Below are positions 22,363 through 40,392 of a stretch of 64,000 nt of DNA, one piece after another. The translations under genes and the position numbers were made by a program. The notes under the pieces were generated by a model, which ran no database searches, was not told the DNA's origin, and saw nothing but the letters and a program-made list of their open reading frames with translations. How positions within the stretch are numbered: the first letter of the stretch is position 1; every line of letters starts with the position of its first letter. Origin of the DNA: an uncultured Gammaproteobacteria bacterium (GTDB lineage Bacteria; Patescibacteriota; Patescibacteriia; UBA9934). Where the stretch lies: NCBI GenBank assembly GCA_964569575.1, contig CAZMTL010000001.1, positions 67,503 to 131,502 on the forward strand. The letters are read 5' to 3'.

Positions 22363-22535
22363 ACCTTTGCATGTTAGCAGATTTTGACCGTTTTTGGCAT
22401 GCACCGTACAATGTTGAGCAATATGTTGTAATTTTATCTATCCTAGACCTTCAGACGCACTCGAGGCGAGAGATTGCCGCCCTTCGCTCGCAATGACCGA
22501 GTTGAGATGCAGCGAAATCGTCTTTCGCCGCGCAA

Positions 22536-23939: not shown

Positions 23940-24330
23940 TTAGAATTAATATTCGTGTGATTTCGAGGCGGCGTTGCCGCTTCGATTTTGTTACAGCGAG
24001 ACTTTGTCACAGCGCCTGGGAGTTTCACCCCCAGACCCCGACCCCCTTTTCTTTGCTAGCTCAAAGTAAAGGGGGGAAAAGAAAGAGCCTTTCCTGGCTC
24101 GGCGGCACGAACATTTATTTTTAGATTATGGAAAGTGACCGATCGCAGTTCTTTTCGCTACACCGGTCCTACGGGGGTCAGGCCCCCTCCAGCCGGTCTG
24201 AAAGAACTGCTCGTCCTTCGCTGATTTTGTTACAGTGATTTAGTTACACGTTTTCTTTGTCGCAGCGTGTTGAGCTCCGCTGGCGTTCGGCTTCGCCTCT
24301 CTTCGTGTTAGGGCATGACTGCACCTCGTC

Positions 24331-24435
24331 CTCGTCATCCCGGACTTGATCCGGGATCCATCGATTCTCGCATGCGCTTCCCCTCCTTCTCGGATCCGCA
24401 AGGAGGGGTGGTTTCGCGCGGATCGAATGCGAACA
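24331..24435. repeat. MITE-like composite hairpin repeat, copy 3
   Basis: ctcgtcatcccggacttgatccgggatccatcgattctcgcatgcgcttcccctccttctcggatccgcaaggaggggtggtttcgcgcggatcgaatgcgaac. Confidence 0.6.
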
Positions 24436-24482: not shown

Positions 24483-27400
24483 TTATTGACCGGCTGAGGT
24501 GAATGGTGCGCTGGTTTTGTAGAGTTGGAGGAGGGTTGGTGGTAAATCTATTACTCGATCGCTCCAGTTTTGTCCGAAGAGGATTGCGGCGGTTTGTTCG
24601 TTTGGAATAGCTCGGATGTAGTTGATGCCTTGCGACAGGATTGGTGCGTAGACGGTTGGGTCGCTTTGGATTTTTACAAGAGAGTTTGCCGGGTTTGGAA
24701 GCACCGGATCGCCCAGCCTGTAGAACGGCAACGTCGCGTCACTCACTACCAATACGTCATCAAAGTCTTGATGCCACGTGAAGTAGATCGCTTGGTTCAT
24801 GAATGGTTTTCGCGTTCCGTTTTCGAGGGCGTAGACCGTTGAGTACGTCGTTCCTTTTACCAATAGCGCGTTGTCTGGAACGCATGTTACTTGTTCTAGT
24901 TCACCGGTTTGCGGCGAAGGAGCAAAGACTTCTTCGGTACAGGCGTCAGGAACAGGTTCGGTTGGTTCGACTGGTTCTTGCGGTTCTTCTACATTTTCGC
25001 AGTCAATCAAAATGTCGGATACGTCTACCGAAGTCGTGAGGGTGTTTGTCGAATTTCCACCCGCCGTTCGCAAGCGTAAGTAGAATGTTTCTACTTCCTG
25101 ATCTGCGACAAATTCAATCGGAGCAATCATGATTTGTTTTTCTGCTGTGCTAACGGTTTCGTCAATCACATACGCCTGCCATTGTGCGCCGACAAAGTAG
25201 GCGTTATCGCTCACCACTACTTGCGCCGCGTTCTTTGCTTGGATGTAGATGTTTGCTTGCGCGACTTCACCGCGACACAGTTGAGGTTCACTCACTTGAA
25301 CATCGATATTTACATTTTCGACCACGATAATCGGCCCCGAATCTCCACCGCCACCTCCGCCGCCGCTTGGCGTGTCGTTGTCGGTGTTCGACAGCGTGAC
25401 ATCGTTTGGATCGATTACGTCGTACAAAGCGTCGGATGTTAACCCGGCATTTATCACTACTTCGATTGTGTACACAACATCCCCGTCTACCGTTCCGTCA
25501 TCTTGTCCGGTAACTGTCACCGTTTGCGGAGTACTCCAGTTAAGTGGAGTGAATGTAAGCGTCGCTCCGCCTGTTACCAATCCTTCTGTTGCGTCGTCGG
25601 ATGCGGAGTTGATTACAACGTCACCCGTTGGTTCGGTGTCGAGCACAACGGTGAATGTTGTGATGCCACCGGCTTCGGTTGTGTTTCCTGATACTGCCGA
25701 AACAGTTACGCCTGCTGTGTCGTTGTCGATATTTTGTAACGACACTTCTTCGCTTGCGACTACGTCATAAACGGTGTCGAGTGTCGCGCCTGCGTTTACC
25801 GAAACATCAATCGCATATGCACTATCGCCGTCGTCGATGTCGTCGTTCTGACCTGTTACCGTGACTGTTTGCGGTTGATTCCAGTTGAGTGCGTCGAAGT
25901 TAAGGGTCGCGCCAGATGTCACCACTCCTTCCGAACTGTCGTTGCTCACATTTTCTATCGTGACACTGGCCGTAGGTTCGGTCTGCAATTGAACCGTGTA
26001 CGTTGCCGTGATTCCGGCCTCGGTCGTGTTATTTGAAATTGCGGAGACAATCAATCCTGCCGTGTCGTCGTCTTCATTCGTAACAGCAACCTGCTGATCT
26101 GGCAAAGCTTCGTATTCGAGGTCGTCGGATGTTGCATCGTCTACCGAAACGGTGACCGTGTACGCGACATCGCCGTCGTCTACGTCATCATCTTGTCCGG
26201 TGACGGTGACGGTTTGTGGCGTATCCCAATTGATCGACGTGAACGTAAGCGTCGCTCCGTCAGTAACTGTCCCTTCTGCGCTGTCCGATGCTGAATTAAT
26301 TACAACGTCACCAGTTGGTTCGGTTGTAAGGACGATTGTAAATGTGGCCGTAGCGCCCGCTTCGGTGGTGTTGTTCGAGATCGGTGACGTGACGAATGAT
26401 GACGAATCATTGTCTACGTTCGAAAGCGCTACGTCGGACGGGTCAATCGCGTCGTAAAGTGGGTCGAGTGTTTCTACCGTATCTGTAGTGATTAAAATAG
26501 TGTATGCAACCAGTCCGTCTGCGAGCGCATCGTCTTGTCCTGTCACGGTCACAGTTTGTGGCGTATTCCAGTTTCCTGCGTTGAATGTAAGCGTTGATCC
26601 GCTTGTCACGACTCCTTCCGATGCATTGCTCGAAACAGAATCGATCACCACATCTCCCGTTGGTTCGCTGTTGAGTCGAATGGTGAACGTTGCTGTTCCG
26701 CCATCTTCCGTGGTGTTCCCGGAGGCAGCGGAGACGGTAAACCCAACCGTGTCGTTGTCGGTGTTTTGGGCGTTTACTTGTTGCGCGGGAAGAATATCGT
26801 AGAGCGCATCTTGCGTGTCGGGTGCGTCGACTTCGACGTCTATCACATACGCCACGTTTCCGTCGTCGATGTCATCGTTTTGTCCGGTCACAATTACTGT
26901 TTGCGGGTCATTCCAATCAGCCGGAGTGAAGGTAAGCATCACGCCGGTCGTCACGACTCCTTCGGACATATCGCCGCTCACCGAATTGATCACCACATCC
27001 CCTGTCGGCTCGCTGTCGAGCACAACGGTGAATGCCGCTACTCCACCGGCTTCCGTCGTGTTGCTCGAAATAGCCGAAAGGGTGAACCCGGCTGTGTCGT
27101 CGTCTTCGTTTGTTCCTTCGACCTGTTCGTCAATCGCGCCAATGTATTCAATCGCGTCTGTGAGCGCTTCGTTTATAGTGACGTCGATTGTGTAGTCGAT
27201 ATTTCCGTCATCCACGTCGTCATCCACTCCCGCGATCGTGACGGTTTGTGGCGTGCTCCAGTTTGAAGCATCGAACACACGACTCGCGCCCGATACAATG
27301 ATTGCTTCGGTCGTGTCACTCGAAATTGAATTAATGACCACGTCACCGGTTGGCTCACTTTCCAAAACAACAGTAAATGTTGCCGTTGTTCCCGCTTCGG

Positions 27401-30400
27401 TTGTGTTGTTAGAAATGGCCGAAACGCCAAAGCCAGCGGCGTCACCATCGTCTTCGTTTACAACTTCTACTTGCTGATTTGGTACGTTGCCGTATCCAGT
27501 TGCCGTTGTCAGTAGATCGTCAACCTCTACTTCGATTGTATAGTTCACGTTACCGTCATCTATTGTATCGTTCACTCCCGTCACAGTGACCGTTTGCGGA
27601 ACCGTCCAGTTTTGATCGTCGAATGTGAGCGTTCCACCGCTAGTTACCAATCCTTCTGTCGAATCGTTCGATATTGAATCAATCACCACGTCCCCTTCCG
27701 GTTCGCTGTCGAGCACAACGGTAAATGTAGCCGTTGCGCCAGCTTCGGTGGTGTTGTTCGAGATGGCAGAAACGGTGACTCCGAGTGTATCGCCGTCGTC
27801 TTCGTTTACAACCGTTACATCGTCTGGATCAATGACTGCGTATTCAACATCGGTTGTATCGTTTTGATCGAGTGTGACAATGATCACGTACTGCACGTCT
27901 TCGTCATCGAGAAAGTCGTCTTGACCTGTTACCGTTACCGTTTGTGGCGTATCCCAGTTACCTGAATTGAATGTAAGCACCGATCCGCCCGTGACGATTC
28001 CTTCTGTTTCGTCGTCGGATTCCGAATTTACCACTACCACTCCGACCGGCTCACTTTGAAGCACAACCGTGAACGTGGCTGTTGCTCCGGCTTCGGTGGT
28101 GTTGTTCGAGATGGCGGAAACCGTAATTCCACCGGCGTCGTTGTCGATGTTTGTGACCACTGCGTCGTCTGGATTAATCGCGTCGTAAAGCGCGTCGTTG
28201 GTCGCGTCTTGGTCCGTGGTCATGATGATGGAATATTCAATATCACCATCCGCAATATCGTCATCTTGTCCGGTGACGGTTGTAAATTGCGGCGTGTTCC
28301 AGTTTTCGGTGGTGAATGTGAGTGTTGCGCCGGCTGTCACAACTCCCTCTGTTGCGTCGTTCGATGCTGCTTCGATCACCACGTTTCCAGTTGGCTCGGT
28401 GTTTAGTACAACCGAAATTGTTGCCGTTCCACCCGACTCTGTTGTGGTACCCGAAACTGCCGAAACACTTACGCCCGCCGTATCATTGTCGATATTTGTT
28501 ACCGCAACATCGTCTGGATTAATCGCATCGTAATTGTCGTCTTCCGTGAGAGCTGCGTCGACAGTGGTGGTGATGGAATAAAGAATGTCTCCGTCGTCCA
28601 AGTTGTCGTTCTGCCCAGTGACTGTTATGGTTTGAGCGATGTTCCACGTTCCTGTTTCAAATGTAAGCACCGATCCACTTGTCACAACTCCTTCTGTCGA
28701 GTCGCCCGAAACCGAATTGATCACAACCGTGTCCGTTGGCTGTGATGTAAGATTTACGGTAAACGTCGCCGTCGCTCCGGCTTCGGTAGTGTTATTCGAA
28801 ATTGCTGAAACATTTACACCAACCGCATCGCCGTCGTCGATGTTTTGCAATGATCGATCGAGCGGATTCGCATTGTCGTAATTGTTGTCGGTGGTCGCTG
28901 CCGTGTCCATCGAAGTCACAATCGAATAAGCAATGTCTCCGTCCGCGATGTCGTCGTCTTGTCCCGTAACTGTGACTGTTTGTGGCGTATCCCAGTTTGA
29001 TGAATCGAAGAGAAGACTTGCGCCGCTTGTCACAACTCCTTCCGTTGCGTCATTCGATGCAGAAAGTACAACAACATCTCCTACCGGTTCTGTTGTAAGC
29101 ACGACAGTGAACGTGGCCGTTCCTCCGGCTTCGGTCGTATCTCCTGATATAGCAGAAACCGTCACACCGCGCGTGTCGTTGTCGGTGTTTTGTGCATTCA
29201 CTGTTTGATCGGCCAACACGTCATAATCACCATCGTCTGTTAATGCGTCGTCGATCGAAACTTGAATCGTGTACGCGATATTTCCATCGTCGATATCGTC
29301 GTCTTGACCTGTTACTGTCACCGTTTGCGGCACATTCCATTCACTCGGAATGAACGTAAGCGTGCCTCCGCCAGTTACTACTCCTTCTGTTGCATCGTTA
29401 GAAACTGAATTGATTACTACATCACCTATCGGTTCGGATGTTAGTTCTACCGTAAATGTAGCCGTCCCTCCGGCTTCGGTTGTGTTATTCGAAATAAGCG
29501 ATACGCTAAATCCTGGCGCGTCGCCGTCGTCTTCGTTTGTGACCGAAACGTCGTTTGGATTTACCGAATCGTATCCGTTGTCGGTTGTTGCTACCGTGTC
29601 TGTTGCGACAACAATTGTGTAGGCAACGTTTCCGTCTCCAAGTCCGTCATCTTGTCCGGTAACCGTGACTGTTTGTGGCGTGTCCCACGTTGCAGAATTG
29701 AATGTCAGACTCGCTCCGCTTGTCACAACTCCTTCTGTTGTGTCGTTTGATGCGGAGGTGATCACCACATCGCCCTCAGGTTCAGAATTGAGTACGACGG
29801 TGAATGTTGCTGTTCCACCTGCTTCGGTAGTGTTTCCGGAGATTGCCGAAACCGTCACACCACGCGTGTCGTTGTCTTGGACGGTGACAGAAACGTCATC
29901 GATTTCGATTCCGTTGTAGTTTGGATCATCTGAAGTGACTGTATGCTCGATAACTACTATCTCATTCGTTTCATCAATATCATCATTCACCGCACTCACC
30001 GTCACTGTTTGTGGTGTATTCCAGTTTAGATCCGTGAAGGTGACAGGATCGATGTCGGTGGTAATTTCGCCAGAATAAGAAAGATCAACCACTACATCGT
30101 CGGTCGGCTGCATGGTCAGCACCAGCGTGTACGAATCCGTCGTACCGTTTTCGTGCACCTGCGTGTTTATGCCCGAAATCGTGACCACTACATCCACAAT
30201 GTCGTTGTCGATGTTGGTAATAGTGACATCGTCCGGATCGGTTGCGTCGTACAGCGGATCGACTGTCGCGCCTTGGTTGATCGACACCACAACATCATAA
30301 AGAACATCTCCATCGATTAGTGCGTCGTCCTGACCAGTCACCGTTACCGTTTGTGGAATATTCCAGTTTTCGGTCGTGAAGGTGCGTGTTGCTCCTGCAG

Positions 30401-33400
30401 TTACCAATCCTTCTGTTGCGTCATTTGATGTCGACGTTACCACTACGTTGCCGGATGGCTGAGATGTGAGCACGAGTGAAAATGTTGCTGTTGCCCCGTC
30501 TTCGGTGGTGTTGTTCGAAATATCAGACACGAATACGCTCGATACATCATTGTCGATGTTCGTAATTTCGACATTGTCTGGATCTCCTCCCCCGAACACT
30601 GGATCATCCGACACAACGGTGCCGGTAACAATTTGGTATACAATATCGCCGTCGTCGATGTCATCATTTATTCCTGTAACGGTAATTTCTTGAGGAATAT
30701 TCCAGTTTAGATCGGTAAACACCACTTCCGTTTCTACAATCGTTCCTTCGGTTGTATCCGAGGAACTGATCGCGACTGTTACATCGTCGGTTGGTTGATT
30801 CGTTAACTCCATCGTGAAGGTTGCTGTCGCGCCGTCTTCGGTGGTGTTGTTCGAAATTTCGGAAACGAATACCCCTGGGAATGTCCATCCGTCATTATTG
30901 CCCGAATCAGTACAACCAACTTGGCAGAAAATATCTGTTCCTCGAACATTGGCGTTATCTTTCAAATCTAAATACTCAACCGTTACCGCTCCTTCTGGGT
31001 CGAGTGATGATTGTACGCCGTCGGTGGTTGATCGCACAAATAATTTTTCGTCGGCGATTCCGGTGAAATCAAAATCGTTTTGAATCGTTTGAGTTTGCCC
31101 AGCTTCAAGCGTAATCGTGTCTTCGGTTGTGACGTTTTTTGCAAGATTGTAGAACGTTGTGGAACCGAAAATAGTCTGCGAGGTACCGTTGAATGTCACC
31201 AGTCCGTTCCGTGGAGTGAATGTAGACGCATTTGTCCAGTCCCCCGCAACGGTGATTGGATAGTTCGACGCACTTACGTCCAACTCTCCTTCGAGGATCG
31301 AAAGGTCGCCATTTACGTCGAGCGCTTCGCCAAGCACAAACACATCGCCAGCATCTGCGCTTGCGATTTCAAAATTTGCATACGTATCTAGGAAATTTGT
31401 GATTGTATATGTATCACTACTTGCATCAGCGTCGCCGGTAAACCGTACAGTGCTTCCAGTTTGCAAATCTGGCTGCCCAGAATTAAATGTGCCGACTTCA
31501 TTTCCGTATAATTCGACCACTCCCCCGTCTTCAACCTGAAACGTTCCGTTGGTTCCGTTCACCGTTACATTAAATCCCGACAAATCCAACACACCTTCTT
31601 GCACAAGAAAATCTTGATTGAATCCGTCGAGCACAAGCGCAGACTGAAGCTGGACAGATCCGCCAGTTTTTTGAATGTATAAATCGGTGTTATGCCCCCC
31701 TGTTGCTCCTGTTAAATCGAATGTTTGAACGGCACCGCCGGTAAAACTTAGGACAGCACCAAAGCTAGTGTTGCTTGTGTAACCACTATTGATCGTGACA
31801 TTTCCACGCGCCTCGATTATCCCGTTGTTCACACCAATATCTCCAAGAACTAGTTCTTCATTTACAATAATCGTATCGTTTGAAATAGAAATTGCCGCGG
31901 AACCAAGCGTCTGTCGATCCACGGTAAGATTGGTGAATTCTTGTGTACCGTCGACGTCCCACGTTCCTGCCGATCGGTATGCGATCACATGCTCGGGGGG
32001 TAAAAATGTTCCGTTTGTTGTCACCGTCAAATCTCCCAATAACCATTCGCTCTGCGTTGACGCATCATAAGTTCCACCGACCTGAATCCATTCAAGTACT
32101 CCTGGGATAAAGTCACTAGGGTTATTAAATGGAATGTTTCCAGAAAATCCTGCCGTTGTGCGAAGATTAACCGTTGCAACCGCGTTCAAATTAATGTCGT
32201 CATCGGCATCTGGAGCTGAATCGAGGATAATCACCGGAGTTGTTCCTCCGTTAATTTCATATGTTTGCACGACCGATTCGTTTGTAAAGTAAATATTTGC
32301 AGACCCACCGGTAAACGAAGCTGATTGCGTAATATTTCCTTCCACTAAGACCGTTCCGTCGTTTAGCCCAACATCAACTAGCGCAAGATTACCATTGACC
32401 ACTATTGTGTCTCCCGAAAATGTTGCCGATGCTGCTCCTAGGTTACTTCGATCAATTGTGACGTCATTGAATTCCTGACTTCCATCTACATCCCAAACAC
32501 CTCCGCTGCGCCAAGAAATCGCATGTTGCGGAGCAATAAATGTTCCTGCCGTACTCAGAATAAATCTTCCCAGCAACCACTCTGTTTGAGCTGACGCATC
32601 ATACGTTCCTCCGACCTGCGTCCAGGTTTCGACTGTTACCTGATAATCCCCAGAATTGTTTAACGGAATTGCACCGCTAAATCCGGCCGTCGTTTCGATC
32701 GATACTCCCCCGTCATTTAGCATCAAGATTTCATCCGATGCATCTGCTACTGAATCTAGTACGATAATCGGCGAAAATCCTCCGTTTACTTCGTACAACT
32801 GATCGACGGCATCATTTGCAAAATACATCATTGCGTCGCCTGAATCGTATGTACTTGCTTGCTCGATGTCGCTATACGCATATAGCGAGCCGTCTTGCGC
32901 TGTTCCATTTGTTAGCGTGAGTTGGCCATACACGTGGATGATATCACCAGAACTTATGTTTAAATTTTGAGCATTTCCTTTATTAATCTCGAGATTAAAA
33001 ACATCAATCGAATTCACTACATCAAAACTCGATACCGTATTTCCATCAAACACGATACTTCCGTTATTATGAAAAAAACTTCCACCCGACTGAATAAAGT
33101 TACGAAATACCATGAACGAATCCTGCGTAGACGTAAACGTACCCCCTGTTTGAGTAAAGTTTTGATTGACATCAATCATTGCATTCCCGCCAATAAAACT
33201 TCCGCTCGCGATACTAAAGTTCGATGCCCCAACCGTTACCGATGACCCTGCTCCTTGAGTGATCGTTCCAGAATATCCACTTGCGATTTCGATACCGGCA
33301 ACAGAAATAGAAGCATCGATTGTTGCATCTTTTGTTGACGTTGCGTTGAACAGAGCAATGTCGCCCGTTCCTGGAATTGTGTCACTGCTCCAGTTCGCAG

Positions 33401-33551
33401 CTTCGTTCCAATTGTTAGTCGCTCCTCCCCCGTCCCACGTGTACGTTGCCGCGTAGGTTGGCTTTGGAAGAAACGTAAAAAAGCTACTTAAAAAAGAGCA
33501 TAAAACGACAAAAGTTATCGCTCGAAAAAATGTTGCACGTAGCGATCGCAT
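24483..33551 (-). CDS. giant secreted surface protein/adhesin (3022 aa): signal peptide, beta-helix N-terminal region, about 17-20 tandem ~105-aa Ig/cadherin-like domains, poly-Gly linker, unique C-terminal domain
   Basis: N-terminal MRSLRATFFRAITFVVLCSFLSSFFTFLPKPTYA; Gly/Asn/Thr-rich beta-helix-type repeats; repeated unit ..TVSAISNNTTEAGxTATFTVVLxSEPTGDVVI.S.SxDxTEGVVTxGxxLTFxxxNWxTPQTVTVTGQDDDIxDGD..Y.I..; GGGGGGG at aa about 2700. Confidence 0.9.
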   Translation of the reverse strand: MRSLRATFFRAITFVVLCSFLSSFFTFLPKPTYAATYTWDGGGATNNWNEAANWSSDTIPGTGDIALFNATSTKDATIDASISVAGIEIASGYSGTITQGAGSSVTVGASNFSIASGSFIGGNAMIDVNQNFTQTGGTFTSTQDSFMVFRNFIQSGGSFFHNNGSIVFDGNTVSSFDVVNSIDVFNLEINKGNAQNLNISSGDIIHVYGQLTLTNGTAQDGSLYAYSDIEQASTYDSGDAMMYFANDAVDQLYEVNGGFSPIIVLDSVADASDEILMLNDGGVSIETTAGFSGAIPLNNSGDYQVTVETWTQVGGTYDASAQTEWLLGRFILSTAGTFIAPQHAISWRSGGVWDVDGSQEFNDVTIDRSNLGAASATFSGDTIVVNGNLALVDVGLNDGTVLVEGNITQSASFTGGSANIYFTNESVVQTYEINGGTTPVIILDSAPDADDDINLNAVATVNLRTTAGFSGNIPFNNPSDFIPGVLEWIQVGGTYDASTQSEWLLGDLTVTTNGTFLPPEHVIAYRSAGTWDVDGTQEFTNLTVDRQTLGSAAISISNDTIIVNEELVLGDIGVNNGIIEARGNVTINSGYTSNTSFGAVLSFTGGAVQTFDLTGATGGHNTDLYIQKTGGSVQLQSALVLDGFNQDFLVQEGVLDLSGFNVTVNGTNGTFQVEDGGVVELYGNEVGTFNSGQPDLQTGSTVRFTGDADASSDTYTITNFLDTYANFEIASADAGDVFVLGEALDVNGDLSILEGELDVSASNYPITVAGDWTNASTFTPRNGLVTFNGTSQTIFGSTTFYNLAKNVTTEDTITLEAGQTQTIQNDFDFTGIADEKLFVRSTTDGVQSSLDPEGAVTVEYLDLKDNANVRGTDIFCQVGCTDSGNNDGWTFPGVFVSEISNNTTEDGATATFTMELTNQPTDDVTVAISSSDTTEGTIVETEVVFTDLNWNIPQEITVTGINDDIDDGDIVYQIVTGTVVSDDPVFGGGDPDNVEITNIDNDVSSVFVSDISNNTTEDGATATFSLVLTSQPSGNVVVTSTSNDATEGLVTAGATRTFTTENWNIPQTVTVTGQDDALIDGDVLYDVVVSINQGATVDPLYDATDPDDVTITNIDNDIVDVVVTISGINTQVHENGTTDSYTLVLTMQPTDDVVVDLSYSGEITTDIDPVTFTDLNWNTPQTVTVSAVNDDIDETNEIVVIEHTVTSDDPNYNGIEIDDVSVTVQDNDTRGVTVSAISGNTTEAGGTATFTVVLNSEPEGDVVITSASNDTTEGVVTSGASLTFNSATWDTPQTVTVTGQDDGLGDGNVAYTIVVATDTVATTDNGYDSVNPNDVSVTNEDDGDAPGFSVSLISNNTTEAGGTATFTVELTSEPIGDVVINSVSNDATEGVVTGGGTLTFIPSEWNVPQTVTVTGQDDDIDDGNIAYTIQVSIDDALTDDGDYDVLADQTVNAQNTDNDTRGVTVSAISGDTTEAGGTATFTVVLTTEPVGDVVVLSASNDATEGVVTSGASLLFDSSNWDTPQTVTVTGQDDDIADGDIAYSIVTSMDTAATTDNNYDNANPLDRSLQNIDDGDAVGVNVSAISNNTTEAGATATFTVNLTSQPTDTVVINSVSGDSTEGVVTSGSVLTFETGTWNIAQTITVTGQNDNLDDGDILYSITTTVDAALTEDDNYDAINPDDVAVTNIDNDTAGVSVSAVSGTTTESGGTATISVVLNTEPTGNVVIEAASNDATEGVVTAGATLTFTTENWNTPQFTTVTGQDDDIADGDIEYSIIMTTDQDATNDALYDAINPDDAVVTNIDNDAGGITVSAISNNTTEAGATATFTVVLQSEPVGVVVVNSESDDETEGIVTGGSVLTFNSGNWDTPQTVTVTGQDDFLDDEDVQYVIIVTLDQNDTTDVEYAVIDPDDVTVVNEDDGDTLGVTVSAISNNTTEAGATATFTVVLDSEPEGDVVIDSISNDSTEGLVTSGGTLTFDDQNWTVPQTVTVTGVNDTIDDGNVNYTIEVEVDDLLTTATGYGNVPNQQVEVVNEDDGDAAGFGVSAISNNTTEAGTTATFTVVLESEPTGDVVINSISSDTTEAIIVSGASRVFDASNWSTPQTVTIAGVDDDVDDGNIDYTIDVTINEALTDAIEYIGAIDEQVEGTNEDDDTAGFTLSAISSNTTEAGGVAAFTVVLDSEPTGDVVINSVSGDMSEGVVTTGVMLTFTPADWNDPQTVIVTGQNDDIDDGNVAYVIDVEVDAPDTQDALYDILPAQQVNAQNTDNDTVGFTVSAASGNTTEDGGTATFTIRLNSEPTGDVVIDSVSSNASEGVVTSGSTLTFNAGNWNTPQTVTVTGQDDALADGLVAYTILITTDTVETLDPLYDAIDPSDVALSNVDNDSSSFVTSPISNNTTEAGATATFTIVLTTEPTGDVVINSASDSAEGTVTDGATLTFTSINWDTPQTVTVTGQDDDVDDGDVAYTVTVSVDDATSDDLEYEALPDQQVAVTNEDDDTAGLIVSAISNNTTEAGITATYTVQLQTEPTASVTIENVSNDSSEGVVTSGATLNFDALNWNQPQTVTVTGQNDDIDDGDSAYAIDVSVNAGATLDTVYDVVASEEVSLQNIDNDTAGVTVSAVSGNTTEAGGITTFTVVLDTEPTGDVVINSASDDATEGLVTGGATLTFTPLNWSTPQTVTVTGQDDGTVDGDVVYTIEVVINAGLTSDALYDVIDPNDVTLSNTDNDTPSGGGGGGGDSGPIIVVENVNIDVQVSEPQLCRGEVAQANIYIQAKNAAQVVVSDNAYFVGAQWQAYVIDETVSTAEKQIMIAPIEFVADQEVETFYLRLRTAGGNSTNTLTTSVDVSDILIDCENVEEPQEPVEPTEPVPDACTEEVFAPSPQTGELEQVTCVPDNALLVKGTTYSTVYALENGTRKPFMNQAIYFTWHQDFDDVLVVSDATLPFYRLGDPVLPNPANSLVKIQSDPTVYAPILSQGINYIRAIPNEQTAAILFGQNWSDRVIDLPPTLLQLYKTSAPFTSAGQ
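25450..30950. repeat. tandem array of roughly 315-nt coding repeats inside adhesin gene (source of many plus-strand shadow ORFs)
   Basis: Periodic protein repeats; multiple overlapping plus-strand ORFs with reiterated SPVGS/TVTVCGV peptides. Confidence 0.8.
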
Positions 33552-33589: not shown

Positions 33590-33730
33590 AATAAAAACGG
33601 GGATAGTTTCTTGGCTTATGTTGCGTGAAATTTTGATTTTGTGTGAAGGGATTTTTTGAAGAGGTTTGTTTGAGGTTTTTGGAGGGGAGAAGAAGGGTTG
33701 AAGGTTCGCTTCACTTCACCATAACCCACC

Positions 33731-33846
33731 CTTCCTCTCGTCATCCCGGGCCCCGACCCGGGATCCATCGCCTTTTTCGTCACACGCGAAAACGCAAACG
33801 CGTTTCCCTTCCTTCTCAGGTCTACAAGGAGGGGTTAGGGGAGGTT
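33731..33846. repeat. MITE-like composite hairpin repeat, copy 1 (reference copy)
   Basis: core A ctcgtcatcccgggccccgacccgggatccatcg (33737-33770), spacer, core B cccttccttctcaggtctacaaggagggg (33806-33834), ttaggggaggtt. Confidence 0.65.
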
Positions 33847-33883
33847 ACGTGCTCCTCGAATACGTTTTAACAAAATAAAGAAG

Positions 33884-33905
33884 GTCAACGTTTCACGGTT
33901 GACCC
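33884..33905 (-). terminator. terminator after pentapeptide gene A
   Basis: ggtcaacgtttcacggttgacc hairpin followed on minus strand by T-rich tract. Confidence 0.5.
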
Positions 33906-33929
33906 TCGCGGGTGCTGTGGAGTTGTACG

Positions 33930-34343
33930 CTAGCAGTCGAGGCGATCCTCGGCTGCGATGCGACTCAACGCATGCTCGGCGCGCTGATGATTGATGATGA
34001 TCAGCTGCTTGGCGGTCGCAATGGGCGTTCCGAGAGAAGCGCCCCAATTGGCCTTGGCGACTCCACACGCCTTCCGAATGTCCATCCGCTCGACCCAGGC
34101 GCCGCTGAAGTCTGCCCCGGCGATGTTGGCATTGTCCCACTTCGATCCCTGCAGGTGCGCGCCGTTGAACTTCACGAACCTGGCGCGCAAACCCGTACAG
34201 TCCGCCGCGTACATGCGCGCGTCGTGCATCGTCTTGCTCTCATGCTCCACCTTGGGACGCTTGTTGCGATCGGCATTGCGCTTACGCCACTCCTCCAGGG
34301 CTCGCGCGCCGCCGATCTTCCGGATCTTCTTGATCAGACTCAT
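33930..34343 (-). CDS. pentapeptide-repeat protein (137 aa), high-GC islet 3
   Basis: GGAG 7 nt upstream of ATG 34343; consecutive A(D/N)(L/F)xG pentads: GAHLQ/GSKWD/NANIA/GADFS/GAWVE..KANWG. Confidence 0.75.
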   Translation of the reverse strand: MSLIKKIRKIGGARALEEWRKRNADRNKRPKVEHESKTMHDARMYAADCTGLRARFVKFNGAHLQGSKWDNANIAGADFSGAWVERMDIRKACGVAKANWGASLGTPIATAKQLIIINHQRAEHALSRIAAEDRLDC

Positions 34344-34694
34344 GTCAAACTCCTTCTTCGCGCTGTGCGAAGGGCGTAACTTGCCATATTGTGTGAATCG
34401 CGTCAATTCGCGCTGCCTGCAAAAAGAAACACCCCCATTTCTTGCGGAACAGGGGTGTGAGTGCGCTTTTGTGCCGCGCGTAGCGGCGTAGTTAGCGCTT
34501 TCGTTGTCGTACCGTCCTTCTTCGAGCGCGTTGTGCTCGACATCGTGCCAGAATGGCTTCGCGGTCGAGCTTGAGTGAAGTGGGTCCGAACACCAGTTGG
34601 CGTGGGCCCATTCCGCAGGGCGGTGATTCGTCGTGGGACGAAATGACCGGATTCTGCGGTTCGAACTCGGTATCGAGCGGATGGCGGCGCCAGG

Positions 34695-35156
34695 CTACCA
34701 CCACGAATAGCCCGTCATGTCATCAAGCTGATCGTTGAAGATGCGTTCGTCCTTCTTCGGCAGCGCGATGTTGTTCGGGGAAGTCAGTGGAGCGTTCAGC
34801 TCGGGGCGGCGCGAGTTGTCGGCGGCGCCCTTGATGCGTGCGAAGTAGTCGCGCGCGATCACGTCTGCGATCACCGAATCACACAGCGGCACACCCTTGC
34901 AGTTGAACTTCACCGTACACTGACCACCTCGGGAGATCAGTTTCACGCCACGCAAGTCCGCGTCGGTGATGTCGGCCCGCTTGGTGAAGACCACGTTCTC
35001 GAGCGTCAGATCGCCCAAGTTCTTGCCGGTCAGATCTTCGTCAATCTCCACGTTGCGCAGAACACGACGGCCGTCCACCGTCTCCACTCCACGCAGTTCG
35101 TAGATCTCGGTCTCCTGAACCGGAAACTGAAGCACCTTGCCCTCTCGAATGCTCAT
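34695..35156 (-). CDS. pentapeptide-repeat protein (153 aa), high-GC islet 3
   Basis: AGGAGG 4 nt upstream of ATG 35156; EDLTG/KNLGD/LTLEN/VVFTK/RADIT/DADLR/GVKLI pentads. Confidence 0.75.
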   Translation of the reverse strand: MSIREGKVLQFPVQETEIYELRGVETVDGRRVLRNVEIDEDLTGKNLGDLTLENVVFTKRADITDADLRGVKLISRGGQCTVKFNCKGVPLCDSVIADVIARDYFARIKGAADNSRRPELNAPLTSPNNIALPKKDERIFNDQLDDMTGYSWW

Positions 35157-35228
35157 GTACCCTCCTGGTGGGCAGCAAAATCTCACATTTCTGACTCAGC
35201 GTCAAACAAAAGAACGCCCGTAGGCGCT

Positions 35229-36065
35229 CTATTTGTTGTCTAGTATTTCCGTCGAAGCTTTCAGTACATTCATCAGCAGGTACGCGACCGTCAACGGTCC
35301 GACACCGCCGGGGACCGGGCTTACGAACCCCGTATGACCCATCACATCTGGCGACACATCACCAACCAGCTTTCCATTCACCTTGTTCGTCCCAACGTCG
35401 ATAATAATTCCTCCGGCCTTCACCATGTCTTTGGTGATAAAATTCGGCACACCTACAGCAACAATCACAATGTCTGCAGCACGTGTTTTGGTGGCAATCG
35501 CCGATTCGTCGCGTTGAATAAACTGCACTGCCACTCCCGATTCTTCTAGCAACCGTTCGATCGGTTCGGCAAATATTTCGTTGTTTCCTACGATCACCGC
35601 TGTTTTTCCGCGCAACGGCTGATGCGTTTCCTGAATCAGTCGCACAATCGCTAGCGCGACAGGTGGCACGAGCGAAGGCTCGCCGTCTGCGAGTCGTTTG
35701 CGGTTTTTGCGGTGGAACCCGTCTACGTCCTTTTGCCATTTGATCTCTTCGATTACCGCATCCTCGTTCTGATTAGGTAATGGAAGCTGGAGCAGAATTC
35801 CATGAATATCTTCGCGCGCGTTTAGTTTTTTGATTTCTTTAATCAACTTCCCTTCCGAAATGTTTGCTTCAAATATTTTCTTCTCAAAATAAATTCCCGC
35901 TTCTTTCGCCGCCTTCTCCTTCAACTTCACATACAAATGCGAAGCCGCATCTTCCCCAACCAATACCGCAGCCAACCCAGGCGGGTGACCTAATTTCTCA
36001 ATCCGCTTTCCAACTTTCTCGCGGATATTCTTCGCAAGCCGTGAACCTTTGATAACTTCTGACAT
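35229..36065 (-). CDS. folD: bifunctional methylenetetrahydrofolate dehydrogenase/cyclohydrolase FolD
   Basis: PGLAAVLVGEDAASHLYVKLKEKA, DVDGFH, NADP-binding Rossmann; start set at MSEVIKG by alignment to FolD N-termini. Confidence 0.9.
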   Translation of the reverse strand: MSEVIKGSRLAKNIREKVGKRIEKLGHPPGLAAVLVGEDAASHLYVKLKEKAAKEAGIYFEKKIFEANISEGKLIKEIKKLNAREDIHGILLQLPLPNQNEDAVIEEIKWQKDVDGFHRKNRKRLADGEPSLVPPVALAIVRLIQETHQPLRGKTAVIVGNNEIFAEPIERLLEESGVAVQFIQRDESAIATKTRAADIVIVAVGVPNFITKDMVKAGGIIIDVGTNKVNGKLVGDVSPDVMGHTGFVSPVPGGVGPLTVAYLLMNVLKASTEILDNK

Positions 36066-36105
36066 AGATTGGGGTAGTATGGCAGAAAAAGGAGGAGAAA
36101 TCAAT

Positions 36106-39100
36106 CTAGTTTACGTATTTACGTTTTTGTTCTTCGATTTTTTCCCTTGATTCACCAATAAAAATGCGGACTCTGTGGAATTTTTCTCCGGCTATTTGTG
36201 CATCACCGAGTTCGACTAATTCGACCACAAGTCCAGATTTAGAGCGCTTTGCAAATTCTTCAACTCGTTTTGCCACTAATTTATAACTTGTTTCTTCTCG
36301 CATTTCGGCATAAATAGGGGGAAATTCTTTTTCTGTGTCTTGATAATGTTCGGCATACTTTTCCACGAACGCATCAATGAGTTGAACGGCGTATTTTCCA
36401 GAGGCGAGACCTTTTGATCGATCGACACCCATGTCGTCTATATACACTTCCGGTAACTCTGGATTTGTGTGATCGACGCGCGCGAGCATGTATCCTTGAG
36501 GGATTTCTTGCTTATTGCGTACCATCAACATCAAATTAGGATCACCGAAATGCTCTTTCGTGAATAGTCCTGCCATGATTCGTTGGTAGCGATCTGCTAG
36601 ACCAAAAATGAGTCCTTTATTTTCTGAAAAGCCCTTGCCTTCCAGAAATGCCATCGAAAGAACATCAGCGGCCGTTACTTCGCTAACGCCCGATCGCTCA
36701 GGTTGCGTGTTTTCGTTTTCTGGATACGTAATTTTATACACTTCGTCTCCTGCGTGATCAATATACGAAACAGGTGACCCTGGAATGTATGTGTTCGCTT
36801 CTTTTTCGAACTTCCAATCTGGTCGACCGGTTTCGTATGTCTCTTTTCCTATCACGAATTTTGTTCGATCAATTGCAAGTTCCTCTGGCAAACTACGCAG
36901 ATACGATCGTCCAAATCTTTCCATGGCTAGTTCGATTAGATTCGCGCGACCTTCATTTAGTTCATTTTTGTTTGGCTCGATATTATCTGCTACCAACACA
37001 AAGCCACTTTGTACATCTTTTTCTTGTAAAATTTCGTGCAGCTGCTTTCTCGATCGTATCTCCTCCATTACTTCTGAAGTTAATCGTTCAAGTTTATGGT
37101 CGATCATAAGCACGGACTGACTCATCGCTAGCCATTTTCCGTCGCTTCCTTTTCGTTCCACAATCAGCTGCGAAATGGCCGGATTCCAGTCATATGCGTT
37201 TGTTTTTCCATCACCAAAAGGCATACAGTTTGCCACTGCTTCGCCCGAAACGCGAATGCTCGGATCGCTTTTTGCTCCAACACGCACGCGGACTTCATTA
37301 GTTTCTAGCGGCCTTACTCCAACCTTTGCCCTGTACAACAATCCATTTGTTCCGTCTCCTAATAATTCCACTAATGCTTCCTTCGACACATTTGGCGCTA
37401 CTCCTTCCTTGATCCATTTTCTCAAAACAGCCGCTGCTCCATTTTCGGTCATCACTTCTCCGTCGTCTGATTCTTTTGCATGTCTTGCAATCCAAGATCG
37501 CACTTCTGTAAATAACTTCTTCACATCTTCTGCTTCGCCAATCATTCCTTCACTTCTCTTTCCAAGCGCACGCGTAATTTCTGTTCCGGCAAATTCTGTT
37601 GTTACTACAAGATCTTCCATTAATTTCCCTTCTTTTGTCATCCGATAATTTTGCTCAAACGGTAGCAACATCTGCATTTTATCGAGCTCGCCATTAAAGA
37701 GAGCGTCTCGAAGCATTTCTTGAGTCAGCCCCGCTCTTTGCACTTCGGCAATTCTTGCCGGTGCGAGCGAATGTGAAAATTCGTTTCCGTAACCCACTTC
37801 TCGATCCAAGAATTCTCCCGGTTCTTTTACAAATTGTCCGATTGCCTCAACGGAAATAACAGGACTTTCCAAGAGTTGCATTGCAAAAGCCTGCAATTCT
37901 GGCTTGGCCTCTCGAAGACCTGCGATCAGTTCTCGACGACCCAGAAAACGATAGAGCTCTTCTGCTAGCTTCAAACCTTTCCAGGAATAAAGTGGGTGAT
38001 ATTTTTCGTCGCTTAATTTTGCTGCTCGAAGTGTAAGCGACTCTATGCCCAACTCTTCGGTCATCACACGTATTTCGTCTAAATTTCTTGGTAGTCCATT
38101 TTGGTGATCATCATCGTCGTTAAGCCACATTCCTTTTAACTCATTACAGATTCTCTTGAATTCCACATAGGAATTCCCCATTTCATAAGCAGACATGTCT
38201 TTGGCGACTTGGCGTAATATCGTTTTTCCAAATCTTTCATGAAATTCTTTTTCAGCTTTTGCGTGAGCCTTGCTATTTCCGCGCGCTTCTACCGGTTTAT
38301 GATTATAAATAAAGCTACTGAGTGCATCATCTTGAAAAAAGTCGTGAAAATTAAAATCTGGACGATTCACGAAAGCAAGCAAATCTTTGGCGCGACATCC
38401 CGCGTTCTTTAATCCTCTCAATGTATCTATCGCTTTCTCATTCGAGTCCTCGTAACTTTCTGCAAATATGTCGAATACTTGATCAAAGTCTTCTTCAGCT
38501 ATCTCTTTTACTTCCTCGTCCTTAAGTAAAAGATCCGGACGTTCGTTTAAAATAGTCTGCGCTAGTTCTGGATTCAAACCCCATGTTACTCGTGCACGTC
38601 GTGCATGATTTGAAATCCTCTCTCCGTATACTGAATATTCTTCACGGATATATTTTGGAATGGATTGATCGTTCATGAATTGAATACGATCCTGAATAGC
38701 ATCCTCTTCCAAAAAGTTTTTTTCTGATATTCCAAATTGCCGTGTTATTTCAGTCAACTTTTTAGCGTCTCCTTCGTACAGTTGATCGACATAATATTTT
38801 TCGAATAATTGATACAATCCGTGAGCTCTAATTTCTGCCTCTGTCATTTCTGCTACTTGTGCCATCGAAAATGCGTGATGATTGTTCCATCCACCTTTCT
38901 CAAAATGATCTGCGATCACATTTACCATGATCGCCATGCGAGCTTCTTTTGATATATTAAATTCATCAAAAGCTCTTAATCCACCGCTGTATAATGTTTT
39001 AGATAAAGCTTTCCTGATCCCCGCTTCAGCTGCAGCTTGCTCGGCTTCCTGCGAAATTTTGAATCCTGTACTAACTTCTCGCGCAAGATCAACTTCTCCA

Positions 39101-40392
39101 CTTGATAACAGAGTTATCATACTTTGTTGCGCAAAAGACTCTTGCATTTCTCGAGATAATTTAAATGCATCCGCAAGATTAGCTGCTTGACCAATCCGGT
39201 TATTCGCCAACAAGATTTGTACCCTTGGCTCTGCAAACGATTGACGAAATTCATCACTAATCCCAAAGGCATCAGCAATTTTCAAACCTTCCGAAACCAA
39301 CCCCTGCTCTACCGAATTGATCATCTCATTTGTTGCGATTTCTTGTAGCTCAGTCGATTCAAGCCTTCCTCGTGGTACTTCAAAATTAGTTATTATTCTT
39401 TCGAGCTCAAAGATCTTTTTTTCTCGTAGTTTCTTGATCAAAAGTAATCTAACTTCATCCTGTACCTCTGGTAGTTGCAGTATTTCTCTCGGTAAATCAA
39501 AAAAATTAATGACCTTTAGTCCATCCTCTGGTTGTCGAGATTTAAATGCTTTCATCGCTGCGAGTCTAGCTTTTTCTTTTGTTTCTGGCTTACTCAACAC
39601 CTCGCTAGCGACAAACCCTAATTCTTCAGAGATGTGAATATATTCAATCAAAATATTTGATCTTACTAATCCTTCACTCAGCCGATCTAATTGTCTCAAT
39701 AATAAATCCTCAACACGTTGACGCACTTCGGTGTCCTGCAACAAAGGCGATTCGATGTTTTTTCCGTTCTTTGAAAATACTGCAATATCCTTCATTGCAA
39801 CCACATCTTCCTCTACCAAAGCACGTTTAAAAATCTCGATCTCTGCGTTTCTTACTTCTTTTGATTCTAATATTTCATCTGATATTTTAAATACTCGTCG
39901 CATTTTAAATACCGCATCCAACCGTCCGTTTTTCAGAAAATCAATCACGATCCCCTTAACCACCCCTGCTTTCAATTCAGCTGATAGCGTTAGCGTTTTA
40001 ACTGCATGCTGATGATCTGATTCGTCATCTTCCCAGCTGGTATTTTTAATATGCTTTTCTACAAGGCGTTTTCGTTGTTCTTCAGAAATTCTTAGCAAGC
40101 CAGCCATTGTTTCGGCCATTTCCACTTGATACTCTTCTAGAAACCAGTAGATCGTATCCTCTATTGCTGTCTGTATCTCTGAACTTTGCATTACTTCGTC
40201 AGAGATACTTGGTACTTTTATTTCTTTTCTAAAAATTACAAAAGGGCCATGCGCCAGACCATCTAGCCATTCAAGAAACTGGTCTCTTTCCGCCTTCATC
40301 TCAGGCGATAATTCCGTCGCCTCGTCATTTTCTTTACTCGTGGCTCGGTTCACGACTTCTTGCGGCGGAGCTGGGCGTTCTCGGTTTTCCAT
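36106..40392 (-). CDS. large cytoplasmic helical-repeat protein (1428 aa), low GC (about 40%), unknown function
   Basis: No TM/signal; recurring roughly 35-aa units containing F(G/K/N)ISxE (AFGISDEFRQSF, AFKLSREMQESF, GFKISQEAEQA, FNISKEARMA, QFGISEKNF); composition distinct from flanking folD/pyrH. Confidence 0.8.
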   Translation of the reverse strand: MENRERPAPPQEVVNRATSKENDEATELSPEMKAERDQFLEWLDGLAHGPFVIFRKEIKVPSISDEVMQSSEIQTAIEDTIYWFLEEYQVEMAETMAGLLRISEEQRKRLVEKHIKNTSWEDDESDHQHAVKTLTLSAELKAGVVKGIVIDFLKNGRLDAVFKMRRVFKISDEILESKEVRNAEIEIFKRALVEEDVVAMKDIAVFSKNGKNIESPLLQDTEVRQRVEDLLLRQLDRLSEGLVRSNILIEYIHISEELGFVASEVLSKPETKEKARLAAMKAFKSRQPEDGLKVINFFDLPREILQLPEVQDEVRLLLIKKLREKKIFELERIITNFEVPRGRLESTELQEIATNEMINSVEQGLVSEGLKIADAFGISDEFRQSFAEPRVQILLANNRIGQAANLADAFKLSREMQESFAQQSMITLLSSGEVDLAREVSTGFKISQEAEQAAAEAGIRKALSKTLYSGGLRAFDEFNISKEARMAIMVNVIADHFEKGGWNNHHAFSMAQVAEMTEAEIRAHGLYQLFEKYYVDQLYEGDAKKLTEITRQFGISEKNFLEEDAIQDRIQFMNDQSIPKYIREEYSVYGERISNHARRARVTWGLNPELAQTILNERPDLLLKDEEVKEIAEEDFDQVFDIFAESYEDSNEKAIDTLRGLKNAGCRAKDLLAFVNRPDFNFHDFFQDDALSSFIYNHKPVEARGNSKAHAKAEKEFHERFGKTILRQVAKDMSAYEMGNSYVEFKRICNELKGMWLNDDDDHQNGLPRNLDEIRVMTEELGIESLTLRAAKLSDEKYHPLYSWKGLKLAEELYRFLGRRELIAGLREAKPELQAFAMQLLESPVISVEAIGQFVKEPGEFLDREVGYGNEFSHSLAPARIAEVQRAGLTQEMLRDALFNGELDKMQMLLPFEQNYRMTKEGKLMEDLVVTTEFAGTEITRALGKRSEGMIGEAEDVKKLFTEVRSWIARHAKESDDGEVMTENGAAAVLRKWIKEGVAPNVSKEALVELLGDGTNGLLYRAKVGVRPLETNEVRVRVGAKSDPSIRVSGEAVANCMPFGDGKTNAYDWNPAISQLIVERKGSDGKWLAMSQSVLMIDHKLERLTSEVMEEIRSRKQLHEILQEKDVQSGFVLVADNIEPNKNELNEGRANLIELAMERFGRSYLRSLPEELAIDRTKFVIGKETYETGRPDWKFEKEANTYIPGSPVSYIDHAGDEVYKITYPENENTQPERSGVSEVTAADVLSMAFLEGKGFSENKGLIFGLADRYQRIMAGLFTKEHFGDPNLMLMVRNKQEIPQGYMLARVDHTNPELPEVYIDDMGVDRSKGLASGKYAVQLIDAFVEKYAEHYQDTEKEFPPIYAEMREETSYKLVAKRVEEFAKRSKSGLVVELVELGDAQIAGEKFHRVRIFIGESREKIEEQKRKYVN

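Follow-up and report, generated by a model that had tools for sequence, protein, structure and literature searches.

A probable horizontally acquired islet in a Patescibacteria chromosome, with genes for a minimal pentapeptide-repeat protein and an orphan

Do the two small genes of a GC-rich block in the chromosome of an uncultured, ultra-small Patescibacteria (CPR) bacterium encode acquired DNA mimics? A sequence-only reading of this DNA had described a block of about 62% GC, flanked by a repeat copy and coding for two unrelated-looking pentapeptide-repeat proteins, and had linked these and a third such protein elsewhere to a DNA-mimic, anti-toxin or anti-restriction function. We examined the locus in the 64-kb window (the whole stretch of DNA analysed, 64,000 nt). 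The block was found between about 33,880 and 35,190, with a mean GC content nearer 60% than 62%, compared to 47.7% for the window. GC ranged from 0.54 to 0.67 in 100-nt windows over 33900-35100 (window mean, 0.477) and from 0.58 to 0.61 over 34000-35200. The resulting islet of about 1.3 kb lies between folD and the gene of a giant surface protein (3022 aa).

The cargo of the islet consists of two minus-strand genes of exactly the lengths previously reported, gene A (33930-34343, 137 aa) and gene B (34695-35156, 153 aa), whose products have no sequence similarity to each other. GC at codon positions 1/2/3 was 0.58/0.47/0.81 in A and 0.60/0.38/0.78 in B, and the frame plot peaked in these same frames, demonstrating two coding frames; codon periodicity was absent over 34344-34460. 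The strong Shine-Dalgarno (SD) sequences noted earlier were recovered on both genes, AAGGAG at 34350-34355 (6 nt before the ATG of A) and AGGAGG at 35161-35166 (4 nt before the ATG of B). So were the terminators: an intrinsic-terminator-like hairpin with a T-tract (33880-33907, minus strand; 10 pairs, 5 of them G-C; tail TTTATTTTGT) lies 22 nt past the stop of gene A, and another (34429-34458, minus strand; 11 pairs; tail TTCTTTTTGC) lies between B and A, being either the terminator of the B transcript or an attenuator within the leader of A. GC drops to the host level at the former hairpin, which forms the left edge of the islet, while the right edge coincides with the terminator-like hairpin of the host folD gene (35211-35230, minus strand). 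Neither gene had a convincing sigma-70 promoter.

The repeat beside the block is real and falls outside the islet itself. This element of about 130 nt (33733-33859) is made of two hairpin modules, CCCGGG...CCCGGG and CCTCCTT...AAGGAGG, and occupies the interval from the terminator of gene A to the promoter of the 3022-aa gene. The window holds five dispersed copies of this host-wide element (2742-2855, 22520-22614, 24326-24412, 33733-33859 and 46958-47108); the copy at 33733-33859 alone adjoins an islet, and the repeat is not islet-specific. The copy had no Rfam match and a fold z-score of -1.05, and the repeat was absent from the 87 loci compared.

We then considered where the islet came from. 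The window contains three such islets of 0.5-1.9 kb, with 1-3 genes each, all flanked by host genes within one contig. GC3 was 0.68-0.85 in the six islet ORFs versus 0.35-0.60 in 38 host ORFs, and all six islet genes (6/6) had GGAGG or AGGAG no more than 20 nt from their start, versus 2/27 genes of the otherwise SD-poor host chromosome (Fisher p=2.5e-5). These figures demonstrate a break in both composition and translation signals. Islet 2 occupies the gap between hpf and secA, two genes that in relatives are directly adjacent, hpf upstream, with gaps of 66-1767 nt. The host junction was also seen in an independent assembly of run SRR15237806: one Logan contig (L091) is identical (100%) to window positions 35047-36557 and spans the folD/B junction, and a second (L089) runs at 100% across UppP, the islet-1 ORF and pyruvate kinase. 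Horizontal transfer and genomic islands have been reported to be common in Patescibacteria (PMC12455944). Taken together, these sequence data make the foreign origin of the islet, as originally proposed, well supported.

Searches for the source of the islets returned little. Among several billion proteins, A, B and the islet-2 cupin had no donor or homologue beyond the superfamily or generic-repeat level, and the phage, plasmid and viral collections gave none either; the inference of horizontal transfer is therefore based on composition and signals, not on phylogeny. We found no scars of integration, whether an integrase, a tRNA, attC or meaningful direct or inverted repeats in the flanks. As for integron cassettes, the three islets contain no pairs of attC core sites (RYYYAAC...GTTRRRY), and no integrase was present among the window ORFs examined. 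No paralogy was detected among A, B and the islet-2 ORF, and the dinucleotide signature, which fails to separate islets from host at 1-2 kb, was uninformative on a common donor. The host genome itself had no close relative in the collections searched: the best metagenome match of folD was 42% and the best SecA match 62%, all host proteins looked up were singletons at 90% identity, and the flanking 1428-aa protein had no relative in the genome or metagenome contig collections.

Protein A contains a short pentapeptide module. Using Pfam PF00805 and Zhang & Kennedy 2021 as the criteria for the superfamily, we obtained a PF00805 match of 23.5 bits (E=4.1e-5), the curated cut-off being 20.2 bits. 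All 19 matches of a PDB search were pentapeptide proteins (best, 1.9e-7), and the score against a synthetic pentapeptide consensus was 53 bits, as compared to a shuffle maximum of 8.9. The repeats form about 10 contiguous units at residues 42-91, equivalent to about 2.5 coils, in the register A(D/N)LXX. Nine of the ten are canonical, position i being hydrophobic and position i-2 small. The protein is strongly basic (pI 10.1, net +11), with an N-terminus that is basic and probably helical and a C-terminal tail of 45 residues past the repeats. A word-indexed protein search yielded no homologues, and plasmid (blastn and tblastn) and IMG/VR scans added only a single pentapeptide protein, from Acaryochloris and 28% identical. 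Two ORFs on the plus strand (33912-34379 and 33991-34491) were rejected as alternatives to gene A: the proteins that they would encode resemble translations of an antisense strand, GC1 exceeds GC3 in one ORF and is below GC2 in the other, and neither matches any family, unlike the minus frame, which has the Pfam match, the SD and the terminator. By these profile and structure-database matches, A is a bona fide, if minimal, pentapeptide-repeat protein.

The same description did not hold for protein B. Its pentapeptide-like stretch comprises four units at residues 40-59, one extra residue and three units at 61-75; the units are thus non-contiguous and their i-2 residues non-canonical, which leaves it outside the pentapeptide-repeat definition. 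There was no Pfam match even at E<=1 and none in NCBIfam, PHROG or PADLOC. PDB matches were weak (E=0.035 and 0.39), and the synthetic consensus gave 16.9 bits. When B was run by HMMER against 1.84 billion representatives, the matches were the protein itself and eight weak multi-stretch ones to giant repeat proteins of the DUF7507, ankyrin, cadherin and pentapeptide types, four of the eight being pentapeptide proteins. In the public protein collection B is a singleton, and the word-indexed search returned B alone. We conclude that B is an orphan of marginal pentapeptide character, only mildly acidic (pI 5.1, net -3).

Between the two genes, the 236 nt that follow the stop of B (34459-34694, minus strand) are GC-rich. 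This spacer is open in the frame common to B and A, as were 7.6% of shuffles, and positions 34461-34694 show a weak periodicity (0.56/0.59/0.69). Predicted RNA structure was above random: the sense strand folded with z=-2.83, or -3.32 with the terminator included, versus -1.97 for the antisense strand and -0.60 for a control from the B coding sequence. No Rfam family was found on the minus strand of the spacer at E<=1, and the GC-rich block as a whole gave no Rfam family and no tRNA that would make it an RNA gene. The spacer is either what remains of a decayed coding sequence or an untranslated region with RNA structure.

We next weighed the possibility that A and B, together with a third protein from islet 2, are acquired mimics of DNA in the manner of Qnr, MfpA and McbG, protecting gyrase or blocking toxins or restriction enzymes. 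The repeats of A are genuine, QnrB1 is among its weak PDB matches (E=0.03-0.08), and the genes are foreign-looking orphans, as many anti-defence genes are; the QnrB1 match, however, covers only 26 residues of A. Eight to nine coils correspond to about 32-36 repeats. Proteins known to protect gyrase are 183-217 aa long, contain 8-9 complete coils and dimerise through a C-terminal helix (PMC8145042), whereas A has about 10 repeats in 137 aa and B about 7, in its 4+3 arrangement and amounting to less than two coils, in 153 aa. Such mimics, which shield gyrase from poisons, pair head to head through their C-terminal helix and are expected to have an acidic electrostatic surface resembling B-DNA. 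We did not see that overall acidity either. The strong basic charge of A is the opposite of that of a DNA mimic, and B carries a net charge of just -3. The candidate third member, the islet-2 ORF at 17483-17845, scored 3.2 bits, about the shuffle level, without a Pfam match and is not pentapeptide-like; the proposed trio is thereby reduced to one clear case (A) and a marginal one (B). An anti-toxin or anti-restriction function fared no better. Pfam, NCBIfam and PADLOC gave no match to anti-restriction or anti-defence families (ArdA, Ocr, KlcA etc.), and PADLOC no match at all. PHROGs gave nothing relevant, with weak matches of A to function-unknown families only (E>=0.0056) and none of B; tblastn against phages found no match for either protein, and the plasmid searches were equally uninformative. 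AlphaFold2 models built from single sequences, there being no homologues to align, reached a pLDDT of 42.3 for A and 37.7 for B, too low for use. On these comparisons the DNA-mimic interpretation of A and B is not supported, and we regard it as highly improbable.

Three other readings of the locus were weighed. The islet might be decaying, with B, the spacer and A as remnants of one gene of about 400 codons that was split by a nonsense mutation and is now non-functional or disappearing. Positions 35186 to 33930 of the minus strand do form a single frame of 419 codons with one internal stop, the TAG of B; pentapeptide-like stretches occur in both halves, the spacer retains its weak GC3 periodicity, and the 7.6% of shuffles with an open spacer, multiplied by 1/3 for the common frame, gives about 2.5%. 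That p-value is modest, however, and the supposed ORF would have to run through a stretch without periodicity and a strong T-tract hairpin (34344-34460), while A owns a well-placed AAGGAG and ATG and both genes have kept their coding periodicity. Recoding or read-through of the B stop was considered and rejected: TAG ends 19 of the 44 ORFs here and is an ordinary stop, so read-through is not indicated. We consider a split gene unlikely. Even less probable, in our view, is that the 236-nt stretch and its terminator form a structured cis-regulatory leader of A (attenuator- or riboswitch-like), an arrangement that would fit the acquired-islet explanation too. The sense-strand bias of the fold and the order of the elements, with a structured region, a terminator and then the SD and ATG about 85 nt on, speak for such a leader. 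Against it, no Rfam family was found on this strand, there are no homologues to give covariation, GC-rich sequence folds well regardless and the terminator may simply be that of B. An assembly or binning artefact, in which GC-rich fragments of another organism were joined into the contig, is suggested by the metagenomic source of the contig, by the abrupt change in composition and by the lack of relatives of the islet genes. It would have to account for three separate islets with host genes on both sides in one contig, for host/islet junctions that recur at 100% identity in the independent Logan contigs, and for islet edges that match host terminators, not arbitrary points. We hold it to be next to negligible.

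The explanation that we favour, with some reserve, is that a horizontally acquired islet of about 1.3 kb carries two foreign-type cassettes that are not DNA mimics. Its insertion would have taken place in intergenic DNA, with folD on one side and the giant surface-protein gene on the other, and A and B would be two independent expression cassettes, each with a strong SD, an ORF of about 80% GC3 and a downstream hairpin terminator. The donor may have been an SD-using bacterium of about 60-65% GC, or its mobile element, drawing on a pool of poorly sampled, fast-evolving accessory genes; such a pool would account for the absence of homologues. Protein A is predicted to fold as a quadrilateral beta-helix of 2-3 coils, with a basic helix on its N-terminal side and a cap at its C-terminus, and could serve as a small adaptor that binds proteins (or nucleic acids), not as a DNA mimic. 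Protein B would be small, acidic and unrelated to A, and its beta-helical stretch degenerate. Both are presumably too short to mimic the DNA bound by gyrase or by a type I restriction enzyme, and the charge of A would be the wrong one. A bolder version, to which we attach little credence, is that the six GC-rich, SD-led orphans of the three islets form a coherent set, derived from the high-GC bacterial host of this episymbiont or from the mobile elements of that host and kept as small effectors or inhibitors that act on host proteins. Protein A might then use its beta-helix to mimic a protein or nucleic acid in the interaction of symbiont and host, perhaps controlled by a structured RNA leader.

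The A/B locus thus appears, judging from its sequence, to be nothing out of the ordinary, a small islet of orphan genes gained by horizontal transfer. If this is true, it offers a clean example of very small foreign cassettes placed between housekeeping genes in the reduced genome of a CPR bacterium. GC3 and SD usage, as two independent signals, could then flag such acquisitions genome-wide and might give an idea of donor or host composition. At the protein level the locus contributes a minimal pentapeptide-repeat orphan (A) and an unclassifiable one (B), and it has no bearing on quinolone resistance or anti-restriction. Its practical value is mainly negative: the DNA-mimic interpretation, though attractive, should not be taken forward on present evidence.

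Among known systems, protein A invites comparison with small stand-alone, function-unknown pentapeptide proteins such as the cyanobacterial Rfr32 (2F3L/2G0Y) and Np275/Np276 (2J8I/2J8K) and the plant TL15 (3N90). Residues 38-98 of A align with these at E=6e-6 to 1e-3 and, as far as its sequence indicates, it resembles them in its A(D/N)LXX register and in being small, soluble and without other domains. It differs in having about 10 repeats against roughly 12-21 or more, in its strongly basic N-terminal 45 residues, in having no identifiable orthologue and in its location on a foreign islet of a Patescibacteria genome. With the topoisomerase protectors Qnr, MfpA, AlbG and McbG, which are often horizontally mobile, A shares the repeat type; the resemblance to QnrB1 is confined to 26 residues (E>=0.03), and both the 2.5 coils and net +11 of A and the fewer than two coils of B set the pair apart. 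Phage morons and small islets are independent units of promoter/SD, gene and terminator, of deviant composition and located between conserved genes. By analogy, A and B may be likened to morons as self-contained SD-ORF-terminator units with a sharp GC shift, orphan products and a position between two host genes, although they lie in a bacterial chromosome rather than a prophage, with no phage genes nearby and no clear promoter. The islands of groundwater Patescibacteria (PMC12455944) were called by IslandViewer4 or from donor-recipient pairs, whereas the islets described here measure 0.5-1.9 kb and have no detectable donor; the two have in common the recipient phylum, a foreign composition and a cargo of function-unknown accessory genes.

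Over ~33,880-35,190, islet 3, the GC-rich block under study, had a GC content of 0.54-0.67 in 100-nt windows compared with a mean of 47.7% for the window; comparable rises were seen at ~950-1400 (islet 1) and 16,800-18,600 (islet 2). The block lies on the minus strand, flanked by folD (35229-36065; Pfam THF_DHG_CYH) and by the start of a gene encoding a 3022-aa repetitive surface protein. Reading along the minus strand, the folD stop is followed by a hairpin terminator (35230-35211), the SD motif AGGAGG (35166-35161) and gene B (ATG at 35156, stop TAG at 34697-34695; 153 aa). A GC-rich interval of 236 nt (34459-34694) separates the B stop from a hairpin terminator with a T-tract (34458-34429), after which come the SD motif AAGGAG (34355-34350) and gene A (ATG at 34343, stop at 33932-33930; 137 aa), with a further hairpin terminator 3' of A (33907-33880). 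Between this terminator and a promoter-like site, a dispersed host repeat is present as one copy (33859-33733), and the ATG of the giant surface-protein gene follows. The GC-rich block, the two ORF lengths, the SD motifs and the hairpins all agree with the sequence-only reading made earlier on this DNA, whose observations were partly confirmed overall.

Both neighbouring regions contain long genes. The giant gene (24483-33551, minus strand) encodes a predicted surface protein of ~16 tandem units, each of ~345 nt (115 aa) and sharing 60-77% DNA identity; the product had no Pfam match at E<=0.001. At 36106-40392 (minus strand), a gene of low GC3 (0.35) encodes a 1428-aa protein with no Pfam family and no relative in genome or metagenome contig scans.

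GC-rich DNA yields long ORFs in many frames, and three overlapping ORFs were present at 33,900-34,500. The A and B frames were chosen over their rivals because codon-position GC is decisive: the values for positions 1/2/3 were 0.58/0.47/0.81 for A and 0.60/0.38/0.78 for B, and this pattern (GC3 > GC1 > GC2) is that of genes from a genome of ~60% GC. By the same measure, the competing plus-strand ORFs were rejected as antisense shadows, as expected. A sliding frame plot gave a single dominant phase over 33,980-34,430 and 34,640-35,060, the A frame carries a Pfam match, and each gene has a well-spaced SD and ATG. The public collection lists the product of B as a called protein, a singleton that comes from an NCBI contig of 159 kb; it yielded no called protein for A or any of the overlapping ORFs looked up.

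On sequence grounds, we regard A as a genuine yet minimal pentapeptide-repeat protein. It matched Pfam PF00805 over residues 57-83 (E=4.1e-5; 23.5 bits for a cut-off of 20.2), and a phmmer search of all PDB sequences returned 19 matches, all of them natural or designed pentapeptide-repeat proteins, the best of which (1.9e-7) covered residues 38-98. Against a synthetic pentapeptide consensus it scored 53 bits, while 300 shuffles reached at most 8.9. The register over residues 42-91, ARMYA-ADCTG-LRARF-VKFNG-AHLQG-SKWDN-ANIAG-ADFSG-AWVER-MDIRK, comprises ten contiguous units (~2.5 coils), narrowly within the 'at least eight contiguous repeats' of Zhang & Kennedy (PMC8145042). Gene B is a marginal case. 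No Pfam match was obtained even at E<=1, the two PDB matches were weak (E=0.035 and 0.39; both pentapeptide proteins, residues 33-77), and the score of 16.9 bits against the synthetic consensus exceeded all shuffles; the units can be written EDLTG-KNLGD-LTLEN-VVFTK, one extra residue, and ADITD-ADLRG-VKLIS. Scanned exhaustively with HMMER, 1.84 billion representatives yielded B itself and eight weak, multi-stretch matches to giant repeat proteins, and since the four pentapeptide proteins among these were mixed with DUF7507, ankyrin and cadherin arrays, we take them as repeat and compositional likeness and not orthology. Of the pentapeptide proteins that had been proposed, A thus stands and B is marginal, whereas the third, in islet 2 (ORF 17483-17845), did not score above shuffles against the consensus. 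No mutual similarity was detected among A, B and the islet-2 ORF, in line with the earlier description of A and B as unrelated-looking.

The block looks foreign, as had been proposed, and several independent observations agree on this. In the window, GC3 was 0.68-0.85 for the six ORFs of the three islets versus 0.35-0.60 for 38 host ORFs. A GGAGG or AGGAG motif within 20 nt of the start was present in all six islet genes versus 2 of 27 host genes (Fisher p=2.5e-5; two islet starts were corrected beforehand, and four host starts were identical to public gene calls). Several host genes instead show, 6-18 nt before the ATG, a -10-like box (TATAAT/TATACT-like), and SD-independent or leaderless initiation is suggested for the host Patescibacteria genome; examples among the host starts are 6568, 41115, 51410 and 60478 (minus strand). 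Six related loci have hpf immediately upstream of secA, the two genes being separated by 66-1767 nt, and here islet 2 (~1.9 kb) occupies the hpf-secA gap. Moreover, contigs from an independent assembly (Logan, run SRR15237806) were identical (100%) to the window in three places: 35047-36557 (from the end of the 1428-aa gene through folD into the first 110 nt of B), 1-2843 (UppP, the islet-1 ORF and pyruvate kinase) and 17617-18574. A binning or scaffolding artefact at these junctions is thereby ruled out. Horizontal gene transfer and genomic islands have already been reported as frequent in groundwater Patescibacteria (PMC12455944). A donor was not found, A, B and the islet-2 cupin having no relatives beyond superfamily level in protein, phage, plasmid and viral DNA collections. 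As to integration scars, no tRNA, flanking repeats or attC-like cores were detected, and the dinucleotide signature is uninformative at the length of islet 3.

The host belongs to the Patescibacteria/CPR. Its SecA was 62% identical to the best match, from a MAG, and 53-55% identical to those of Magasanikbacteria and Falkowbacteria MAGs; the contig collections, genomic and metagenomic, contained no close relative, and the host proteins looked up were all singletons at 90% identity. In the closest relative found (the one with SecA at 62%), the hpf-secA gap is occupied by another, oppositely oriented ORF of 179 aa (L001, 5148-5687), which looks like a membrane protein; the site seems variable across the lineage. 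The islet-2 genes encode a divergent cupin (ATG at 17327, 149 aa, Pfam Cupin_2, 1e-11) and products of 120 and 177 aa; all are SD-led, with GC3 of 0.76-0.85 and without close homologues. Islet 1 holds an orphan ORF (967-1395, minus strand; 142 aa, GC3 0.68, GGAGG SD) between UppP/BacA and pyruvate kinase, an arrangement reproduced in Logan contig L089.

The repeat next to islet 3 is a host element. It is ~130 nt long with two conserved hairpin modules, and its five copies in the window lie at 2742-2855, 22520-22614, 24326-24412, 33733-33859 and 46958-47108, the last of which carries an insertion within its first hairpin. On each side of glyA (22692-23939) stands a copy; the two are in inverted orientation, their arms being 95% complementary. 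The copy at 2742-2855 falls in frame within a VirD4/TraG-like ATPase/coupling-protein ORF (2285-4915, minus strand), in the part for its low-complexity C-terminal tail, and translates as ...AMDPGSEPGMTRRE..., a peptide motif that recurs at 33616-33783, in a spurious ORF overlying a repeat copy. The repeat was not found in 87 loci from other genomes. A role as islet boundary element was rejected; the copy at 33733-33859 is the only one of the five to adjoin an islet.

B, the interval and A share one frame of 419 codons (35186-33930, minus strand), in which the TAG of B is the only internal stop. The pair may thus have a split-gene or pseudogene history, which the weak GC3 periodicity in the upstream part of the interval also favours. 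The hairpin with T-tract, the aperiodic stretch at 34344-34460 and the SD of A itself, however, favour two genes now, and TAG is an ordinary stop in the window, ending 19 of 44 ORFs. The alternative to such a history is chance: the 117-codon interval was open in 7.6% of dinucleotide shuffles, or ~2.5% once a factor of one third is applied because the frame is shared. Read on the sense strand, the interval (34459-34694) had a more stable predicted fold than its shuffles (z=-2.83; adding the terminator at 34458-34429 gave -3.32); the corresponding values were z=-1.97 for the antisense strand and z=-0.60 for a control taken from the B coding sequence. A structured 3'UTR, or a leader/attenuator upstream of the SD of A, is therefore possible, although Rfam gave no match on the sense strand. 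We consider it unlikely that the islet genes derive from the bacterial host of the episymbiont and serve as effectors in the episymbiosis, possibly under the control of a structured RNA leader.

Two self-contained foreign-type cassettes are inserted in a host intergenic region. They would have been transferred horizontally, the source being a donor or mobile element with SD usage and ~60-65% GC, probably part of a rapidly evolving accessory pool. A may be a small binding module of beta-helical fold whose N-terminal arm is basic and probably helical; because of this arm, binding to protein or nucleic acid is more plausible for A than mimicry of nucleic acid. B would be a small acidic protein unrelated to A. 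We hold this account of acquisition and architecture to be fairly probable, and any specific function for A or B much less so. A is a further, minimal orphan with pentapeptide repeats, carried by a small islet that was probably acquired horizontally.

The sequence-only reading had proposed acquired DNA mimics of the Qnr/MfpA/McbG kind with an anti-toxin or anti-restriction role, and was half right: the foreign part fits, whereas the DNA-mimic features examined were not found. Confidence was very low for the single-sequence AlphaFold2 models of A (pLDDT 42) and B (pLDDT 38). Neither protein matched a defence, anti-defence or relevant phage family; in PHROGs, A had weak matches to families of unknown function only. 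The Qnr match to A spanned 26 residues (E>=0.03). Topoisomerase-protecting pentapeptide proteins have eight to nine complete coils within 183-217 residues, a C-terminal helix through which they dimerise head to head, and a rod with B-DNA-like negative potential (PMC8145042). By comparison, the repeats amount to 2.5 coils in A and to fewer than two in B; A is strongly basic (pI 10.1, net +11, with +8 within the first 40 residues) and B mildly acidic (pI 5.1, net -3). Given the coil number, the charge, the short Qnr match and the lack of a defence family, A and B are therefore not filed with Qnr/MfpA/AlbG or with the anti-restriction mimics.
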